This document shows, piece after piece, positions 343-13,707 of a stretch of 64,000 nt of DNA. The position numbers and the translations under genes were made by a program. The stretch is from NCBI GenBank assembly GCA_050950825.1, contig JBMNIH010000001.1, forward strand, positions 55,073 through 119,072, read 5' to 3'. Under the pieces are notes generated by a model. It searched no databases and was not told the DNA's origin. It worked only from the letters and a program-made list of their open reading frames with translations. Each line of letters begins with the position of its first letter. Positions within the stretch are counted from its first letter, which is position 1. This DNA is from Clostridia bacterium (lineage in GTDB: Bacteria > Bacillota > Clostridia > JAAYHZ01).

Positions 343-459
343 TTCCGGCAGCGACCTATCTTCCCGGGGCGCCACGCCCCGGTATTTTCAGCACCGAGAA
401 GCTTAACTGCCGTGTTCGGGATGGGAACGGGTGGGTCCTTCTCGTTATTGCCACCGAAA
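343..459 (-). rRNA. rrf: 5S rRNA (ends approximate)
   Basis: Conserved 5S segment CCCATCCCGAACACGGCAGTTAAGC on the minus strand, downstream of 23S. Confidence 0.93.
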
Positions 460-535
460 ATCTTTATTCTCTTCGCGCGCTTTTTATCGCACCCTCAAAA
501 CTGCATAATACGTCTTTTTTCTTCAGCGACGACCT

Positions 536-3457
<2,922 letters not shown>

Positions 3458-3715
3458 TTTCCTTTGGTCCATCATTTCATATAGGTTGATTGTCCCAAGC
3501 TCGTCGCTTTTCCTGATTATTTTTTTAGCATTGTTTCAGCATTGTTTTTTTGTCGTTTTCGATAAAATTGCAGACTCAGTGAGTCACTCGTTACCGTTTT
3601 TTATTTCGGCTTCTCGTTTTAACTCTCTTTGTCTTCCTTTTTGTCGCGGTTCCATTCTTCATGGAACCTTTTGACGCATTATGCAGTTTTCAAGGTGCGA
3701 TCGCTTGCGCGTTCT

Positions 3716-3792
<77 letters not shown>

Positions 3793-3874
3793 TCAAATCC
3801 TTGATCATGTACAGTGTATTGAACCGTCAATCGACCTTATACGATTACGGCGAAATTTCTTCCGTCGTCAATCT

Positions 3875-5417
<1,543 letters not shown>

Positions 5418-5613
5418 ATTCAATCTTCAAACCCTCTTCGGGTCTCTTGTTTGTCCTGTCTTTTTTTTAGACTTTTTGTCCCGTGCGATTTTCTCGCACT
5501 TTGGATTTACTTTTAAATGTTAAACTCTCGCTTTTTCAAGCTTAAGTTTGACGGGTTCAATACACTGTTCATTTTTCAAGGTTCTGCGCCGTCTATTTCC
5601 GGACGGCTCGTTT

Positions 5614-8153: not shown

Positions 8154-8741
8154 CTATATTTTAACAAAATCCGGATCGGAAGAGCTTTCGGAATAGACGT
8201 CCTTTTTCATTATATATAACGTTTCTCTAAAATTAAAAACTTCTTCTTTCGAATACCATTTGACATCAAGGCAAATGTTTCCTTCTGTGTGTTCAATCAA
8301 AAGAAGCGCTCTTTTAGAAAACGTATAAGCTAACGCCGAGATAACGGCCAACAAAATGGTCAGCGGGGTGTACGATCTTAAAAAGCGGTATACGATCAAG
8401 GACACAATGACAAAGATTAAACACACGATCAACATGGTCAAAGGATATCGAGTTCCGTAGGTTGTGGATTTAATGTTTTCTACGGGGATTTTATTTCTTC
8501 GATTGTGTATACGAGGCAGCGTTCCGTGGATTCGTTCCATAAGAACACCTTCTTGGTAAAGATGTTTGTCCGTCAATACCAAAACGGTACGAGTCCTTTT
8601 TCCGGCTAACCCTCTTTTTAAATATCTCGATCCCAAGACATTAATCAAGGTTTCGCCTTTTTCCTTCACATAATCCTCCAGCAGTTTTCTTTTGCTTTCG
8701 GACAACATACTGACATTGTCGTAGCTAATTCTCTCATCCAT
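8154..8741 (-). CDS. Hypothetical membrane protein (2 TM)
   Basis: 195-aa ORF with two hydrophobic segments. Confidence 0.6.
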   Translation of the reverse strand: MDERISYDNVSMLSESKRKLLEDYVKEKGETLINVLGSRYLKRGLAGKRTRTVLVLTDKHLYQEGVLMERIHGTLPRIHNRRNKIPVENIKSTTYGTRYPLTMLIVCLIFVIVSLIVYRFLRSYTPLTILLAVISALAYTFSKRALLLIEHTEGNICLDVKWYSKEEVFNFRETLYIMKKDVYSESSSDPDFVKI

Positions 8742-8847
8742 TTTATCGCAACACCCTTTTTGATCGATTTATTATATTATATCATTCTTTCCTTTGACAT
8801 GTCAAAAAATGCTACACTTTTCCATTGAATTTGCAAAACCGACATAT

Positions 8848-9624
8848 TCACTCGGATATTTTACTTAAATCGTACTCGATATTAAAAGACGTTAAAAATT
8901 CGTTTTCGCTTAATGGAATCGAGGAAGCAATAAACCGGATATGATCGTTGTAACGCGATGTTACGGAAATCGCTCTCGTTTCGTCGTCGGAAGTTTTTTC
9001 GTGATTATCCTTATACACGGTTTCATAATGTCCGATAAATTTATCCGTATACTCATTATCCAAAATCCAATATCTTTCAAAGGTTAGGGTATTTTGTTCC
9101 GAGTCATATTCCAACCCTCGAACTCCGGAAAATACGTTCAACCATTCCGGAAAAGGCTTTATAATTCGATCCGGATATTCATTGTCTATATACGGGAAAA
9201 CAATGGAATTGTACACCGAATAAATTTTCACCGATAAAGAAACACGGTCGTCTTCATCGAAACGAATGGTGATATGAATTTGCTTATTTTTTACGGAGTA
9301 TGAGTTTTCCGATACTTTGGGAATGGACATTTCGAATAATTCTTCCGTGTTTTTAATAAAGCTCTCCATACCGCCGCTTTTGTCATAGGTAACATCATAA
9401 GTCAATACTTCTTCCTTCGGGTCATAGTATTTATGAAGATAGATGATTTTACCCGAAGTCAAATGTGTATCCAAGCCGTATATGTCCTCCAATAAGGCTT
9501 CCGTCGGGTGTTCCGTTAAATACGGGTCCAATGCCGAATAATCCTTCGGTTCTTCTTTTGCTTTACATGCGGATAAAAATATCAATATTAAAATCAAGCT
9601 ATATGCAAGAAAAGCTTTTCTCAT
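8848..9624 (-). CDS. Hypothetical lipoprotein
   Basis: Signal peptide with lipobox LSAC. Confidence 0.7.
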   Translation of the reverse strand: MRKAFLAYSLILILIFLSACKAKEEPKDYSALDPYLTEHPTEALLEDIYGLDTHLTSGKIIYLHKYYDPKEEVLTYDVTYDKSGGMESFIKNTEELFEMSIPKVSENSYSVKNKQIHITIRFDEDDRVSLSVKIYSVYNSIVFPYIDNEYPDRIIKPFPEWLNVFSGVRGLEYDSEQNTLTFERYWILDNEYTDKFIGHYETVYKDNHEKTSDDETRAISVTSRYNDHIRFIASSIPLSENEFLTSFNIEYDLSKISE

Positions 9625-9710
9625 ACTTAATACTTAACCTCAATCTATGTTCTTTCAATATATTGCACCGTCGAAAAATTTATATGAGTCGTGAATCGAT
9701 CAAAAACTTT

Positions 9711-10520
9711 TTACTTATCGATTCCGAATTTTCTCCGGATGTTTTTCATTACAACATCCTTCGGCAGCAGTCGGGATGCCAAATGCAAAAACCGAGAATT
9801 TCTTCCGACGGCATAAAACATCTTCGGTTTTTTCAATTCCATAATCTTTACAATCTTTTTTGCTATAATATCCGGCGAATCGCCGTTGTTTATGCCGGCA
9901 TCACGCATATCCGATACTTTTTTGTAGTAGGGATAATAATCGGATTCTTTGGAACAACTTTTTTCTTGGTATATGTTTGTTTTCACGAACACAGGAGCAA
10001 CCGCCGTCACAAAAACTCCGAACTGTCGGGTTTCGCTGTTAAGAGCAAAAGACAGGGTTTCCATAGCCGCCTTGGCCGATGCATAAACGGCCGAAAACGG
10101 AACCGGTGTACGGGATGCAAAAGAAGTGACATTAATAATCAGCCCCTTTTTTTGCTTTCGCATACCGGGTAACACTCCTTGCATCACAATGCTATGTCCG
10201 AAAAGATTAATCTGAAAAAGCTTTTTGATTGTATCTTGGGACAATTCCTCCAAAGGTCCCATTAAACTGGAGCCGGCATTGTTGATTAATACATCAACCG
10301 TCGGTATTTCCGAAAGCAGCCTTTTGATGCTCTCTTCATCGGACAAATCCAACCTTTTGTAAAGAACGCCTTGAACCTTATCTTCTTCCTTTAATCTTTC
10401 CGGTTCCCTGCAGGTACCGATAACACGATAGCCTTTTTTGACCAATTTTTCGGCAGTCGCTCTTCCGATTCCTTTGGATGCTCCCGTGATCAGCACGGTT
10501 TTTTCTTTTTTATCATTCAC
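9711..10520 (-). CDS. SDR family oxidoreductase (candidate 3-keto-capnine/3-ketosphinganine-type reductase)
   Basis: TGASKGIG, NNAG, YASAK motifs; 2 bp from the upstream VOC gene. The substrate is inferred from context only. Confidence 0.85.
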   Translation of the reverse strand: MNDKKEKTVLITGASKGIGRATAEKLVKKGYRVIGTCREPERLKEEDKVQGVLYKRLDLSDEESIKRLLSEIPTVDVLINNAGSSLMGPLEELSQDTIKKLFQINLFGHSIVMQGVLPGMRKQKKGLIINVTSFASRTPVPFSAVYASAKAAMETLSFALNSETRQFGVFVTAVAPVFVKTNIYQEKSCSKESDYYPYYKKVSDMRDAGINNGDSPDIIAKKIVKIMELKKPKMFYAVGRNSRFLHLASRLLPKDVVMKNIRRKFGIDK

Positions 10521-10522
10521 TT

Positions 10523-11587
10523 TTAGTCCCGCCCTATATCCAACAGTTTTAATACAAAGTCAGGCAGCGGTTTTTCTCGATCTCTCTTTCTTAAGTCGAT
10601 AAACCACCCTAATTTCTTGATAACAGGGATTTTATGGGTTTCCACAAACTCGATCAACGTCCCGTCGGGATCTTCTATGTAGGAAAAACGGCCGGCTCCT
10701 TGTCCCATATCGAAGGATTCTCCTTTTTGCCCGGCACCGCTGTCCACCGTAAAAGGAAAACCGGCTTTCTCGCATTTTTCTTTTAACGCATTCATATCCA
10801 ATACATCAAAACACAAATGGATAAAGCCCAAATCGCCCCATAACCGGTCTTTGAATATTTTCTCTCCTTTTCGTTCTTCGGACCTTATCAACTCGATTTC
10901 GCTTTTCCCAAAAAGCCGGGAGAAAGGACCGGGTCTTTTATTGCTATGAGTTAAAAGCACACGCCTTAGTATCCATGCTCCTCCGGGGATTTCTTTGTAG
11001 TCGTCGAAAGCTTCGGTACGGTCGTAAAGGATCCGGTCGTATCCGAGCACATCTCGATAAAAGGCAACGGATGCCTCCATGTCGGAAACACCGATTACCG
11101 CTCCGAATACGCCTCCGTTTTTGTATTTGGTTTTCTTAAAGACCTCTTCCGTTTCCACCGCTTGAAAAAGGTTTCCGTAAGGGTCGGAAAAATACAACAC
11201 GCTCCGACCGTCCGGGGATTTTTTCAAATCCCCTAAGACGGCGACATTTTCTTTCTTTAGCCGGTCATACAAGGCTTTCACATCTTTGGATTTGATTTTG
11301 GTCATATGGATGCCCAAATCTCCTAAATGAAGGTCGAAAGCAGGCGGAGAAGGTGTGCGATCAACATACTGCCAAATTTCCAAGCCTCCCCCTCCCTGCA
11401 GATTGTACGCCATAACCGCGTGCCTTTTTTGAGGCTTTCCGGCGGTGTAAGGCAGCATCAATTCCGCCGTTCCGGCATCGTCGATAACCGGCGTGTTAAA
11501 TCCTAAATGCTTGTGATACCAATCCAAGGCCTCGTAAACTTTCTTAACGCCCACTCCCACTTGTTGAATTCCGCTTATTAAATTCAT
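10523..11587 (-). CDS. Tandem VOC (glyoxalase-fold) protein
   Basis: Two VOC units with DPYGNLFQ and DPDGTLIEFVE motifs; start overlaps the upstream stop (ATGA). Confidence 0.85.
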   Translation of the reverse strand: MNLISGIQQVGVGVKKVYEALDWYHKHLGFNTPVIDDAGTAELMLPYTAGKPQKRHAVMAYNLQGGGGLEIWQYVDRTPSPPAFDLHLGDLGIHMTKIKSKDVKALYDRLKKENVAVLGDLKKSPDGRSVLYFSDPYGNLFQAVETEEVFKKTKYKNGGVFGAVIGVSDMEASVAFYRDVLGYDRILYDRTEAFDDYKEIPGGAWILRRVLLTHSNKRPGPFSRLFGKSEIELIRSEERKGEKIFKDRLWGDLGFIHLCFDVLDMNALKEKCEKAGFPFTVDSGAGQKGESFDMGQGAGRFSYIEDPDGTLIEFVETHKIPVIKKLGWFIDLRKRDREKPLPDFVLKLLDIGRD

Positions 11588-12852
11588 TCTTCTTCACCGT
11601 AAAGTCTTCGAATATCTTTCGGATCAAGGTTCAGATCCATCTTCATTTCGTCACGTAAGCATTTGAAGGCTTCCAACGTTTTCTCTACGTCTTCGTCCGT
11701 ATGGTCCGCCGTGGGAATGATGCGAAATTCGACAAAATTCTTCGGAATAACGGGATACATTACGGCCGTTGTAAAGATTCCTTTGTTTCTTAAGAACAAA
11801 ATCCATTCCATACCGATTTTCGGGTCCCCTCCCGGAACAAATACCGGAATAATCGGCGATTTTACATCACCCACGTAAAAGCCCAAGGCCTTCAATCCTT
11901 CGGATAACTTGTCGGAAATATGGAACAGCTTCTTTCTTCTGTCCGCTCCGTTTCTCACCAGCTCCAACGTCTTCTGTAGACTCTTGACGTAGATCATTGG
12001 CAAGCTTTTAGCGAACACCTGCGTTCTGGAGTTGTACCGAATCCACTCCGTTACGGGCTTATCGGCGGCGGAAAAGCCTCCGATGGATGCAAAAGCCTTG
12101 GCAAAGGTTCCGAAGTAGATATCGATTTTATCTTGAACGCCGAAATATTCGCCGGTACCGACGCCGTTTTTACCCATGACACCTACACCGTGGGCATCGT
12201 CCACGAATAATCGAGCTTCGTATTTATCCTTTAAAGCGCAAATCTCATCCAATTTGGCCAAGTCCCCGGTCATTCCGTAAACACCTTCGGTTAAAACCAG
12301 AACGCCGCCTTTTCGTTTTTCATTCACCTGCTTTAATATTTTTTCAAGGCTGTCCATATCGTTGTGCTTGAATACGCGAAGCTTTCTTCGGTCGGAAACC
12401 GCGGAAATAGCTGCGTCCACGATGGAAGCATGGGCCAGCTTGTCCATAACAATGACATCATCGGGACCTACTAAAGATGCAACGGTACCGATAACACCCA
12501 AATAGCCGTAGTTAAACAGGATGGACGACTCTTTTTGTGCAAAGTCGGCCAACCCTTCTTCCAAAGCAATGTGCTCCGGTGTGTTGCCGCTCATCATTCT
12601 TGAGCCCATAGGGCCGCTTGTGCTCCAGATTTCCAATGCTTCTTTTGCCGCTTGCTTCACTTCTTCGTGTCCGGCCAGACCTAAATAATTGTTGATTGAC
12701 CACATAATATACTGTTTACCTGCAATGGTCATTTTCGAACCGGGCACCGAATCGATAACAGGCATCGTAAAGGTTCTGTCCCCTGCAGCCCTAAAAGCAC
12801 CAAAATAACCTGCGTCGGTATTACATTTTGCAAATATGTCCTCGTATGTCAT
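11584..12852 (-). CDS. PLP-dependent alpha-oxoamine synthase, cysteate C-acyltransferase (SulA/CapB)-like
   Basis: WSINNYLGLA, PMGSRMMSG, HASIVD, DDAHG, GTFAK (PLP Lys252), RTQVFAKSLP (Lys282), YPVIPK. Confidence 0.8.
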   Translation of the reverse strand: MTYEDIFAKCNTDAGYFGAFRAAGDRTFTMPVIDSVPGSKMTIAGKQYIMWSINNYLGLAGHEEVKQAAKEALEIWSTSGPMGSRMMSGNTPEHIALEEGLADFAQKESSILFNYGYLGVIGTVASLVGPDDVIVMDKLAHASIVDAAISAVSDRRKLRVFKHNDMDSLEKILKQVNEKRKGGVLVLTEGVYGMTGDLAKLDEICALKDKYEARLFVDDAHGVGVMGKNGVGTGEYFGVQDKIDIYFGTFAKAFASIGGFSAADKPVTEWIRYNSRTQVFAKSLPMIYVKSLQKTLELVRNGADRRKKLFHISDKLSEGLKALGFYVGDVKSPIIPVFVPGGDPKIGMEWILFLRNKGIFTTAVMYPVIPKNFVEFRIIPTADHTDEDVEKTLEAFKCLRDEMKMDLNLDPKDIRRLYGEEE

Positions 12853-12930
12853 TTACAGTTCTCCTTATAACTTAAATTTATATTATGAAATACTAGCACA
12901 TCATCCCGGGCAGTTCAACCCAAGTGACGC

Positions 12931-13707
12931 TTAGTCCTTAAACACATCGCCGATACCGTTTAAAATGTATTTCGGTCGATATGCAAATCTCTTGATATTC
13001 TCCGGCGTGGAAACGCCGCTTAAAACCAATACCGTATCAATTTCCGATTCGATTCCGGCAATAATATCGGTATCCATACGGTCTCCGATAATGACCGTCT
13101 CCGAACTGTCGCAGCCTAAGAGCTTTAATCCGTGCCTCATCATTAAGGGATTCGGCTTTCCCACAAAATAGGGTTTTACACCGGTTGCCAATTCAATGGG
13201 AGCAATCAGCGCTCGGGTTGCAGGGACAATTCCTTTTTCCGTAGGACCGGTAAGGTCCGAATTGGTCCCTATAAGCTTGGCTCCTTTTAGAACCAAATGA
13301 ACCGCATGCTCGATTACGTGGTAATTGTAGTTTCGCGTCTCTCCTACCACCACATAATCCGGGTTTACATCGTTCATCGAAAGTCCCGCATCGTACAATG
13401 CATTAATCAGCCCCGCCTCCCCGATAACAAACACCGATCCCCCGGGCTTTTGGGATTGCAAAAAAGCGGCCGTTGCCAAGGCGCTGGTATAAAAATATTG
13501 ATCCTCTACTTCGATTCCCATTCGCGCAAGCTTTTGCGACAGCTCCCTTCGGGAGCGTTCCGAGCTGTTGGTTAAAAACAAAAACCTTTTATTATACTTT
13601 CTTAATGCGTCAACAAACTCTTTCGCCCCCTCCAGCAATCGATTCCCGTGGTAAAGGACGCCGTCCATATCGATGATAAAACCGGTTTTTTCTCTTAATT
13701 CCTTCAT
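12931..13707 (-). CDS. HAD-IIA hydrolase (NagD family)
   Basis: DMDGVLY, LTNSS, GKPN, GDRMDTDI. Confidence 0.92.
   Translation of the reverse strand: MKELREKTGFIIDMDGVLYHGNRLLEGAKEFVDALRKYNKRFLFLTNSSERSRRELSQKLARMGIEVEDQYFYTSALATAAFLQSQKPGGSVFVIGEAGLINALYDAGLSMNDVNPDYVVVGETRNYNYHVIEHAVHLVLKGAKLIGTNSDLTGPTEKGIVPATRALIAPIELATGVKPYFVGKPNPLMMRHGLKLLGCDSSETVIIGDRMDTDIIAGIESEIDTVLVLSGVSTPENIKRFAYRPKYILNGIGDVFKD

Follow-up and report, generated by a model that had tools for sequence, protein, structure and literature searches.

Sulfonolipids have biological activity, with roles in gliding motility, in the induction of choanoflagellate rosettes and in TLR4 signaling in the gut, and to our knowledge they have been treated as a trait of Bacteroidota. 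The cysteate synthase family, which supplies the sulfonated amino acid, converts O-phosphoserine and sulfite to L-cysteate. The capnine/sulfobacin pathway of Bacteroidota uses three enzyme types (CapA/Cys, CFAT and CapC/KCR), of which the condensing enzyme has been characterized as SulA of Alistipes finegoldii (7u7h) and as CapB/CFAT of Capnocytophaga ochracea (28eh), both built on the fold-type I α-oxoamine synthase (AOS) scaffold. Bacterial SPT and 3-ketodihydrosphingosine reductase follow the same logic: a PLP enzyme carries out a decarboxylative Claisen condensation, an SDR then reduces the product, and the AOS and SDR genes are paired. PMC9304779 locates the sulfonolipids of Bacteroidota in the outer membrane, and PMC11211663 describes the cfat, Cys and kcr genes of C. 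gleum and A. finegoldii as scattered. The genome analyzed here contains the same three enzyme types, which in relatives stand in one cluster, as operons that also include a VOC gene and genes for sulfate activation or APS reductase; their hosts include monoderm bacteria.

The window (the entire 64-kb stretch of DNA analyzed) carries at 9711-12852 on the minus strand a tightly packed trio encoding an AOS, a two-domain VOC protein and an SDR (Table 1). The AOS stop and the VOC start share 4 nt and the VOC and SDR genes are 2 nt apart, in agreement with the tight coupling described in an initial annotation made from the sequence. Pfam matches were Aminotran_1_2 (PF00155, E = 1.1e-46) for AOS, two Glyoxalase domains (9.4e-25) for VOC and adh_short (2.9e-47) for SDR. 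A promoter and terminator scan of the stretch gave no sites above shuffled sequences (promoter-like, 16 versus 13.7). Whether the flanking genes belong to the pathway is uncertain: the HAD-IIA gene 5' of AOS is kept in one of the 80 AOS loci (L005, 81% identity), and an ORF homologous to the lipoprotein-like ORF sits after the SDR in a genome of the same genus (G007).

Table 1. Features of the AOS-VOC-SDR locus and its flanks in the window
Feature	Coordinates	Strand	Evidence
AOS, CFAT/SulA/CapB-like PLP-dependent, 422 aa, predicted cysteate C-acyltransferase	11584..12852	-	PDB phmmer, residues, tree
Two-domain VOC (glyoxalase/bleomycin-resistance/dioxygenase superfamily), 354 aa, AOS companion	10523..11587	-	Pfam Glyoxalase x2, AF2 model
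Classical SDR, 269 aa, predicted 3-ketocapnine reductase	9711..10520	-	Pfam adh_short, motifs
Intergenic region 5' of AOS; AAGGAG ribosome-binding site 8 nt before ATG	12853..12930	-	Sequence
HAD-IIA family hydrolase, 258 aa, upstream of AOS	12931..13707	-	NCBIfam TIGR01460 139 bits (cut-off 100)
ORF, 258 aa, lipoprotein-like N-terminus, downstream of SDR	8848..9624	-	No Pfam match

A complete bacterial 16S gene (3881-5421, minus strand) lies on the same contig together with 23S and 5S genes, and the closest named relative of the operon comes from a MAG labeled 'uncultured Clostridiaceae bacterium'. The contig is unlikely to be chimeric, because the HAD-AOS-VOC order is repeated in a genome of the same family (L005/G006), the AOS(3' end)-VOC-SDR-lipoprotein order is repeated in G007, and GC content is uniform across the operon region. 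The genome gave no match for BamA and contains a Spo0A-like gene scoring near the cut-off. The host is a Gram-positive anaerobe of biogas reactors. Its identity with a Lachnospiraceae (Firmicutes_A) species flagged in PMC11525784 was considered and is unlikely; its own GTDB order holds just three genomes.

With the window AOS as a phmmer query against solved structures in the PDB, SulA (362 bits) and CapB/CFAT (28eh, 'Cysteate-C-fatty acyltransferase', 356 bits) led SPT (233 bits) and Kbl (223 bits) by about 130 bits, and BioF matches reached at most 163 bits. Identity to SulA and CapB is about 50%, a distance that counts against a capnine assignment, and none of the NCBIfam equivalog cut-offs was reached. 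A quick IQ-TREE phylogeny was computed from 87 rows (80 CFAT-like, 3 SPT-like and 4 Kbl), with the SulA, CapB and BioF sequences themselves left out. The CFAT-like superclade, which includes the window AOS, separated from the SPT-like and Kbl rows with an SH-aLRT of 100. The window AOS clade (support 86), with members from Firmicutes, Spirochaetota, Marinimicrobia and Aminicenantes, is sister to a Bacteroidota branch that stands for SulA and CapB: its row L079, used as a proxy for the characterized enzymes, scores 608 bits against SulA and 584 bits against CapB, and the characterized enzymes are therefore placed in the sister branch. The match to SulA and CapB claimed in the initial annotation is supported. 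The clade of the window enzyme is sister to that of the characterized enzymes, and the substrate of the window enzyme is predicted from sequence.

The motifs named in that annotation are all present in the translation: WSINNYLGLA (residues 51-60), PMGSRMMSG (81-89), GTFAK (248-252) with the PLP lysine K252 (CFAT K250, SulA K251), and RTQVFAKSLP (276-285) with K282. Lysine at SulA position 281 and CFAT position 280, where SPT has alanine, has been proposed as a marker that distinguishes condensing enzymes for sulfonolipids from those for sphingolipids (PMC9304779). In our alignment the position is lysine in 80 of 80 CFAT-like rows, alanine in all three SPT-like rows and asparagine in all four Kbl rows, and the window AOS has K282; its E189, F247 and A251 are also CFAT-type. 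The further claim that the lysine of FAKS binds the sulfonate is not supported. According to PMC9304779, SulA K281A retains cysteate binding, and a structural role is proposed there for the lysine. The CFAT-cysteate structure described in PMC13692747 shows sulfonate hydrogen bonds from Asn52, His139 and Lys250. The residue is still a valid marker.

For the pocket as a whole, residues were mapped using the list given for the PLP-cysteate structure in PMC13692747 (N52, G81, A82, F113, G114, Y115, H139, C141, H219, T247, K250, M277, F278 and K280). Ten of these 14 are identical in the window AOS, the differences being A82S, F113Y, C141S and M277V, and 15 of all 19 mapped positions are identical to C. 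ochracea CFAT. The first of these differences, S84 in the window AOS, is an SPT-type residue where 36 of 36 Bacteroidota/Chlorobi rows have alanine, and it counts against a capnine assignment. The other three first-shell differences are conservative, and tyrosine at the F113 position also occurs in 18 of the 36 Bacteroidota/Chlorobi rows.

No cysteate synthase lies in the window, as was noted initially. A search of the whole genome gave a single match, on contig C8 (128562-129878), with 420.2 bits to TIGR03844 against a cut-off of 324.9; among 14 control genomes, Methanosarcina was the sole one above this cut-off. In related loci the gene is found directly 5' of AOS (22 of 80), often with sulfate-activation or APS-reductase genes beside it. 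A cluster from a Ruminiclostridium MAG showed the order VOC - cysteate synthase - AOS - SDR - AprA-type - AprB-like ferredoxin, in which the AprA-type protein scored 888 bits to NF005331 (cut-off 557), and six Spirochaetota loci have cysD-like and cysN/C-like genes upstream. Across a sample of 400 genomes of the same class, AOS (E<=1e-100) was present in 3/400 and cysteate synthase above the cut-off in 3/399, and these were the same three genomes.

We consider that the three genes are probably an operon that makes a sulfonated long-chain base of the capnine type, with product, substrates and chain length as predicted below. The cysteate synthase on contig C8 would make L-cysteate from O-phosphoserine and sulfite. 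Because AOS belongs to the CFAT superclade, it is expected to join cysteate to a fatty acyl group supplied as a thioester, acyl-ACP being the likeliest donor, to give 2-amino-3-keto-alkane-1-sulfonate (3-ketocapnine) and CO2. On the basis of its gene position and the known pathway, SDR would reduce the 3-keto group to form capnine, and VOC may be a conserved accessory that acts together with this reductase on the intermediate amino-ketone. SDR has the TGxxxGIG, NNAG and S..YxxxK motifs and reached no equivalog cut-off (PRK06179, 229 bits with a cut-off of 310; KDS reductase NF049977, 161 bits with a cut-off of 400). Because the published KCRs are diverse with little sequence identity among them (PMC11211663), sequence does not discriminate the role of SDR; its position next to AOS supports a reductase role, and an orthologue with 39-51% identity lies directly 3' of AOS in 10 of 80 loci. 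For a putative N-acylation step, no N-acyltransferase was identified, nor does one lie in the clusters. A 70-aa ORF downstream of AOS in G291 was considered as an ACP and set aside, its translation, judged by eye, being unlike an ACP.

The VOC protein, initially described as an unassigned tandem companion, fits that description, as its gene is conserved in 24 of the 80 AOS loci. Its AF2 model (pLDDT 90.4) contains four beta-alpha-beta-beta-beta modules, a fold common to the two-domain VOC proteins maize glyoxalase I, PcpA hydroquinone dioxygenase, human GLOD4 and B. cereus 1zsw. TM-scores to these folds were 0.50-0.58 when normalized to the query and 0.61-0.66 when normalized to the target, with identity of just 13-14% and a sole sequence-level PDB match at E = 1.5e-4. 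The fold search returned generic two-domain VOC folds and no characterized close relative, the protein atlas gave clusters named 'VOC family protein' only, and the literature search found no VOC protein described in an AOS/SDR gene context. A putative ligand set consists of E232, H257 and E313, of which the histidine is replaced by glutamine in 3 of 17 homologues, and the gene is found in lineages of strict anaerobes; both features would fit a non-redox VOC. With low confidence, and by analogy to glyoxalase I or methylmalonyl-CoA epimerase, VOC may be a metal-dependent proton-transfer enzyme, a C2 epimerase or isomerase, and an O2-dependent dioxygenase appears less likely. The C-terminal tail (residues about 320-354) is basic and aromatic-rich and may be suited to work at a membrane surface.

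Outside Bacteroidota, the VOC gene follows AOS closely. Among Spirochaetota it was present in 13 of the 14 genomes with AOS and in none of the 127 without, and it was present in 3/399 genomes of the class sample, every one of them AOS-positive, although Fisher values overstate such co-occurrence, since related genomes are not independent. The co-occurrence seen in these two sets is weak in Bacteroidia (78/174 versus 7/27, p = 0.09), which counts against it there. One AOS-positive Spirochaetota genome and G291, which has cysteate synthase and AOS, are without VOC. A Treponema row is nested among Firmicutes in both the AOS and the VOC trees, which we read as joint transfer of the two genes; the backbone of the VOC tree is unresolved (9 of 41 inner branches starred), and only the Firmicutes and Treponema grouping was used from it.

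A broader interpretation is possible and is put forward tentatively: a self-contained sulfate to sulfite to cysteate to capnine operon family may exist outside Bacteroidota and may have been transferred between monoderm Firmicutes, Spirochaetota and Marinimicrobia. VOC would be an unrecognized sulfonolipid enzyme, perhaps one that, together with the reductase, epimerizes or isomerizes 3-ketocapnine at C2. The VOC would then serve the Bacteroidota pathway too, as suggested by the SDR-VOC tandem in 15 of 29 VOC loci of Bacteroidia. If correct, sulfonated sphingoid lipids would be products of Gram-positive anaerobes that have just one membrane. The key enzyme has a distinct clade in monoderm Firmicutes, in spirochaetes and in marine phyla not yet cultured, packaged there with sulfur-supply genes. 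This would broaden the range of producers and pose the question of what role such lipids have in a single membrane. Two candidates emerge from the operon form that the scattered genes of Bacteroidota could not point to, namely a dedicated reductase and a VOC protein as a new partner. Several of the carriers are cultured, among them Sporobacter termitidis DSM 10068, Haloplasma contractile, Paenibacillus sp. V4I9 and Bacillus salacetis.

The capnine assignment has to be weighed against other uses of the same genes. AOS could use cysteate with a short or medium acyl-CoA, which would yield, in place of a membrane lipid, a soluble amino-ketone or amino-alcohol with a sulfonate group, such as a small metabolite, an osmolyte or the precursor of a natural product. 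The link to cysteate is strong, yet no computed result bears on acyl chain length; the window AOS clade is only sister to the characterized long-chain enzymes, the clusters are without an N-acyltransferase, and the monoderm carriers lack the outer membrane in which PMC9304779 places the sulfonolipids of Bacteroidota. We nevertheless regard a short-chain product as unlikely, considering that 6/6 CFATs tested make long-chain bases (PMC13692747), that first-shell and neighboring residues are kept in both CFAT clades and that the VOC tail would fit a membrane surface.

It is also conceivable, though quite improbable, that the genes are a decaying remnant, with the operon intact in sequence and the pathway stopped by a lost supply of sulfite or cysteate. 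Unlike in the relatives, the pathway is split in this genome, with the cysteate synthase on a contig other than that of the AOS operon, and no cysteate synthase was found in G007; both points count against the capnine assignment. Beside the cysteate synthase, frame changes and stops interrupt aprA (at least six pieces) and aprB (two pieces), with a transposase and split AbiE genes close by. The genome gave no match to Sat (TIGR00339), and no intact step from APS or PAPS to sulfite was identified there, which also weighs against capnine; the pathway in this genome may be decaying. However, AOS, VOC, SDR and cysteate synthase are all full-length frames without stops, AOS-VOC-SDR is retained in the sister species G007 at 76-87% identity, and cysD, cysN and cysC are intact. 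The stretch is also covered by contigs from four metatranscriptome-labeled runs; single contigs span VOC-AOS in three of the four, and in two of those three most of SDR too, evidence that consists of contigs, was read only for the parts they cover and may include DNA carry-over.

An SPT-like AOS that makes an ordinary sphingoid base, with the neighboring cysteate synthase of the relatives serving another purpose, is very unlikely. CFAT and SPT have fold and chemistry in common, S84 is SPT-type, and the NCBIfam SPT models reach about 295 bits; yet their scores (295, 293 and 218 bits) are far below the cut-offs (640, 500 and 670). K282 replaces the alanine of SPT, and E189, F247 and A251 are not SPT-like. 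The supply gene associated with the window-type AOS is a cysteate synthase, which in the class sample occurs in exactly the three genomes that carry the AOS and which neighbors it in relatives. Elsewhere in the genome, a separate and much more SPT-like paralogue (565 bits, cut-off 640) lies within its own SDR-AOS-glycosyltransferase cluster.

Finally, a glycine C-acetyltransferase (Kbl) or BioF, as suggested by the public annotation of relatives and by model scores of about 310 bits, can practically be dismissed, as the bioF (311.6 bits) and Kbl (308.6 bits) scores fall below their cut-offs (426.45 and 460), Kbl sequences proper fall in a clade of their own and carry Asn, Gly and Thr where the CFAT markers lie, and PDB matches to BioF are low; no BioF above its cut-off was available for the tree. 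Relatives of the window AOS are named 'glycine C-acetyltransferase' or generic aminotransferase in their sources, and assignment of the clade to the CFAT superclade would fix this widespread misannotation.

On the basis of its CFAT residues, its position in the tree and the linkage of its relatives to cysteate synthase, the gene set annotated initially as a sulfonolipid (capnine)-type operon is a real operon of the cysteate C-fatty-acyltransferase (CFAT) type. It is very probably cysteate-dependent, with a predicted sulfonolipid-type product. Its pathway is a known one, of which it represents an undescribed branch outside Bacteroidota, and it includes a new conserved partner, a two-domain VOC (glyoxalase-superfamily) protein. 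The open reading frames of the α-oxoamine synthase (AOS), VOC protein and short-chain reductase (SDR) were present where they had been placed, all on one strand. The motifs quoted for the AOS were recovered, and the numbering of K252 and K282 was correct. The AOS stop and VOC start overlap by 4 nt, 2 nt separate VOC from SDR, and an AAGGAG site lies 8 nt 5' of the AOS ATG. The reported 16S gene on this contig was borne out as part of a full rRNA operon, which accounts for the high GC content of the first 5.5 kb of the window.

Coordinates of the operon, the rRNA genes and two further loci of the source genome (G000; C8 and C10 are other contigs, L002 and L004 the corresponding stretches)
Feature	Position	Strand	Description
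AOS	11584-12852	minus	422 aa; Pfam Aminotran_1_2
VOC protein	10523-11587	minus	354 aa; Pfam Glyoxalase x2
SDR	9711-10520	minus	269 aa; Pfam adh_short
Complete 5S-23S-16S rRNA operon	343-5421	minus	same contig; tRNAs flanking and in spacer at 225-297, 3719-3792
Broken aprA-type and aprB-like genes	G000:C8:126567-128550 (L002 about 8570-10563)		3' of cysteate synthase; aprA in at least 6 collinear pieces, aprB in 2; frame changes and stops
Second long-chain-base-like cluster	G000:C10:154880-158959 (L004: 232-1407, 1480-2652, 2663-3505)	all minus	SDR, SPT-like AOS, GT4 glycosyltransferase

The window stretch was found in 14 DNA runs, comprising sludge, bioreactor and anaerobic-digester metagenomes and three labelled only "metagenome," and in six metatranscriptome-labelled runs, four of which were examined contig by contig. 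Single assembled contigs covered most of SDR, VOC and AOS in X15 (9952-13103) and X16 (9894-12844) and VOC and AOS in X17 (10659-13305); being contigs, they may combine several transcripts or stem from carried-over DNA. X19 gave short pieces only.

The AOS scored below every NCBIfam equivalog cut-off, including bioF (311.6; cut-off 426), Kbl (308.6; 460) and serine palmitoyltransferase (SPT; 295; 640). Among all PDB sequences, its top two matches were 7u7h (362 bits) and 28eh, "Cysteate-C-fatty acyltransferase" (356 bits), followed by SPT (233 bits), Kbl (223 bits) and BioF (at most 163 bits). The deposited name of 7u7h is "7-keto-8-aminopelargonate synthetase-like enzyme"; we take it as SulA of Alistipes finegoldii because the numbering and the K281 context agree with PMC9304779. 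CFAT pocket residues, taken from PMC13692747, were placed on an 87-sequence alignment, in which window numbering equals that of the Capnocytophaga ochracea CFAT (CapB) plus 2. E189, F247 and A251 of the window AOS follow the CFAT pattern, unlike SPT and Kbl. Its pocket differs from that of C. ochracea by A82S, F113Y, C141S and M277V (CFAT numbering). At position 82 every one of the 36 Bacteroidota/Chlorobi rows has Ala, whereas Ser, the SPT residue, predominates in the other clade; the Tyr at position 113 is shared by 18 of those 36 rows. The marker lysine, K282 in the window, is Lys in 80/80 CFAT-like rows, Ala in 3/3 SPT-like rows and Asn in 4/4 Kbl rows. In PMC9304779, this lysine is proposed as a marker dividing sulfonolipid from sphingolipid condensing enzymes. 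The initial annotation was thus right about the type of the FAKS lysine but wrong in detail in having it bind the sulfonate, since the same paper reports that SulA K281A still binds cysteate.

A quick IQ-TREE tree of 87 rows contained the window AOS, 76 locus proteins, three named proteins and seven paralogues, classed by NCBIfam as one true SPT, two SPT-like and four Kbl; the partial sequences L021, L039, L048 and L062 were excluded. Eighty of the rows, the window AOS among them, form a CFAT-like superclade (SH-aLRT 100, stem length 1.58) apart from the SPT-like and Kbl rows, in a tree whose rows do not include BioF, SulA or CapB. Within the superclade, Bacteroidota and Chlorobi make up one clade (36 rows, support 99), and its sister clade of 44 rows (support 86) is composed of Firmicutes together with a single Treponema row (12 rows, support 99), Spirochaetota with Marinimicrobia, and a third group of Aminicenantes, Acidobacteria and "Eubacteriales"-labelled MAGs. 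The Roseimarinus (Bacteroidota) protein L079 scored 608 and 584 bits against SulA and CapB, versus 362 and 356 bits for the window AOS, which places the characterised enzymes in the Bacteroidota and Chlorobi sister clade.

All 120 protein-collection clusters listed were at least 60% identical to the AOS over the aligned parts, one spanning only 70% of the query. Among these, the source names (P0002-P0120) were only "glycine C-acetyltransferase" or generic aminotransferase names, a systematic misannotation of the clade. Named cultured carriers include Sporobacter termitidis DSM 10068, Haloplasma contractile, Paenibacillus sp. V4I9 and Bacillus salacetis. In the AOS tree (support 95) as well as the VOC tree (support 93-94), the Treponema MAG L010 nests among Firmicutes, adjoining Sporobacter, which suggests joint interphylum transfer of AOS and VOC. 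Six "uncultured Eubacteriales" MAGs (L019, L020, L023, L024, L029, L046) carry an AOS nearly identical to that of Aminicenantes MAGs next to an outer-membrane beta-barrel gene, and their taxonomic labels look doubtful. Three "Sphingomonadales" MAG contigs (L055, L060, L061), with CFAT genes almost identical to those of Chitinophagaceae, are probably mis-binned.

A search of the source genome for cysteate synthase, as the initial annotation had proposed, gave one match on contig C8 (420 bits; cut-off 324.9), a cut-off passed by Methanosarcina only among 14 control genomes. Gene context was counted in 80 related loci, all counts being lower bounds as many contigs end early. Cysteate synthase lies immediately 5' of the AOS in at least 22 loci, all among the 43 of the non-Bacteroidota clade, and in none of the 37 Bacteroidota/Chlorobi loci. 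A VOC gene was present in at least 24 (19 non-Bacteroidota, three Chlorobi, two Bacteroidales), an SDR directly 3' of the AOS in at least 10 and an AprA-type gene in at least four. The Ruminiclostridium MAG locus L012 has the order VOC, cysteate synthase (475 bits), AOS, SDR, AprA-type (NF005331, 888 bits; cut-off 557) and AprB-like ferredoxin. In six Spirochaetota loci (L016, L022, L028, L032, L033, L035), cysD-like (PAPS_reduct domain) and cysN/APS-kinase-like genes lie directly 5' of the cysteate synthase-AOS pair. An AOS that did not consume cysteate would hardly account for two distinct sulfur-activation modules on one cysteate synthase-AOS core. Seven other Spirochaetota loci have a TetR regulator in common.

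CFAT, cysteate synthase and 3-ketocapnine reductase (KCR) are characterised from Bacteroidota only (PMC9304779, PMC13692747, PMC11211663). According to PMC11211663, C. gleum and A. finegoldii do not have these three genes clustered, whereas L012 holds cysteate synthase, AOS and SDR in one cluster. In a table of PMC12927429 the accession numbers of C. ochracea CapA and CapB follow one another directly, and their genes are therefore probably adjacent. Filtering at 50% similarity, a survey of gut genomes listed 42 species of Bacteroidota and a single one of Firmicutes_A (Lachnospiraceae; 1/9,633 genomes), which it did not pursue (PMC11525784), and a looser survey gave Firmicutes matches at E<1e-20 (PMC11211663). 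In the literature searched, which did not extend to subscription journals, we found neither the clade outside Bacteroidota nor its operons or its link to VOC described, and no sulfonolipid reported from Firmicutes or Spirochaetota.

In the source genome the cluster is split, with cysteate synthase on C8 away from the operon. A DDE transposase and split AbiEii/AbiEi genes lie a few kb from the apr fragments, and this locus appears to be decaying. Intact cysD, cysN and cysC are found on contig C4; neither Sat nor an intact step to sulfite was found in this genome, whose pathway may be eroding. The proposed monoderm host fits the genome: at 97% completeness no BamA was matched, and a Spo0A-like gene came close to its cut-off (184 bits; cut-off 200), both as in a monoderm Firmicute. 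In the cluster on C10, the SDR has 3-ketodihydrosphingosine reductase as its best NCBIfam match (280 bits; cut-off 400) and the AOS is SPT-like (NF047600, 565 bits; cut-off 640); this cluster may be a sign that Clostridia can make sphingolipids or glycosphingolipids. A comparable SPT-like paralogue is encoded by Sporobacter (L099, 530 bits).

The VOC protein had been proposed as a pathway component, and its distribution supports this outside Bacteroidia. The source genome's GTDB order holds three genomes only, and the class was sampled evenly. The AOS (E<=1e-100) occurred in 3/400 genomes, namely the source genome, the same-family G006 and G291, and cysteate synthase passed its cut-off in the identical trio (3/399). 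VOC (E<=1e-20) occurred in 3/399, all with AOS: the source genome, G006 and the same-genus G007; it was absent from G291 although AOS and cysteate synthase are present there. In G007 the AOS is cut by the contig end (104 aa, 87% identical) and followed by VOC and SDR; cysteate synthase was looked for in this genome and not found. Among 141 Spirochaetota genomes, VOC was present in 13 of the 14 with AOS and in 0/127 without it (Fisher test 1.8e-17, overstated as related genomes are not independent). Six of these 13 proteins are 50-54% identical to the window VOC and seven 30-35%. The distant form (query residues 2-322) takes the place of the close orthologue in AOS-positive G612, G627, G653, G665, G694, G703 and G711 and occurs as a second copy in G732; it may represent another VOC subfamily linked with this pathway. 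In 201 Bacteroidia genomes, including two flagged unpublished (G499, G585), AOS is nearly universal (174) and VOC common (85), but their association is weak (78/174 AOS-positive versus 7/27 AOS-negative, p = 0.09). A same-strand SDR, 28% identical to the window SDR, lies directly 5' of VOC in 15/29 Bacteroidia VOC loci.

The AF2 model of the VOC protein (pLDDT 90.4, pTM 0.91) contains four VOC modules. The Foldseek matches were all remote, being two-domain VOC folds (PcpA, 1zsw, maize glyoxalase I, GLOD4) of 13-14% identity, and the best PDB sequence match had E = 1.5e-4. Every atlas cluster, mostly from Bacteroidota, is named "VOC family protein." Of the papers searched outside subscription journals, two mention both a sulfonolipid and a glyoxalase, and to judge from title and abstract neither deals with this pathway. 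Invariant polar residues in a 17-homologue alignment include Q8, Q9, E70, D135, N139, E232, R248, D252, C259, D261, E313 and E316, while H257 is kept in 14 rows and replaced by Gln in three. Because the Glu/His/Glu site tolerates Gln and the gene is present in strict anaerobes, we tentatively consider non-redox proton transfer a likelier activity than dioxygenation. That the gene so constantly accompanies an SDR hints at an amino-ketone intermediate as putative substrate. KCRs are reported to yield two capnine epimers (PMC11211663), which would make stereochemical control at C2 of this intermediate, alongside the SDR, a reasonable if speculative role. The conserved VOC tail (residues about 320-354) abounds in basic and aromatic side chains; K324, K334, R335, K339, P342 and K347 are invariant or nearly so, and the tail looks like an interfacial membrane-binding segment.
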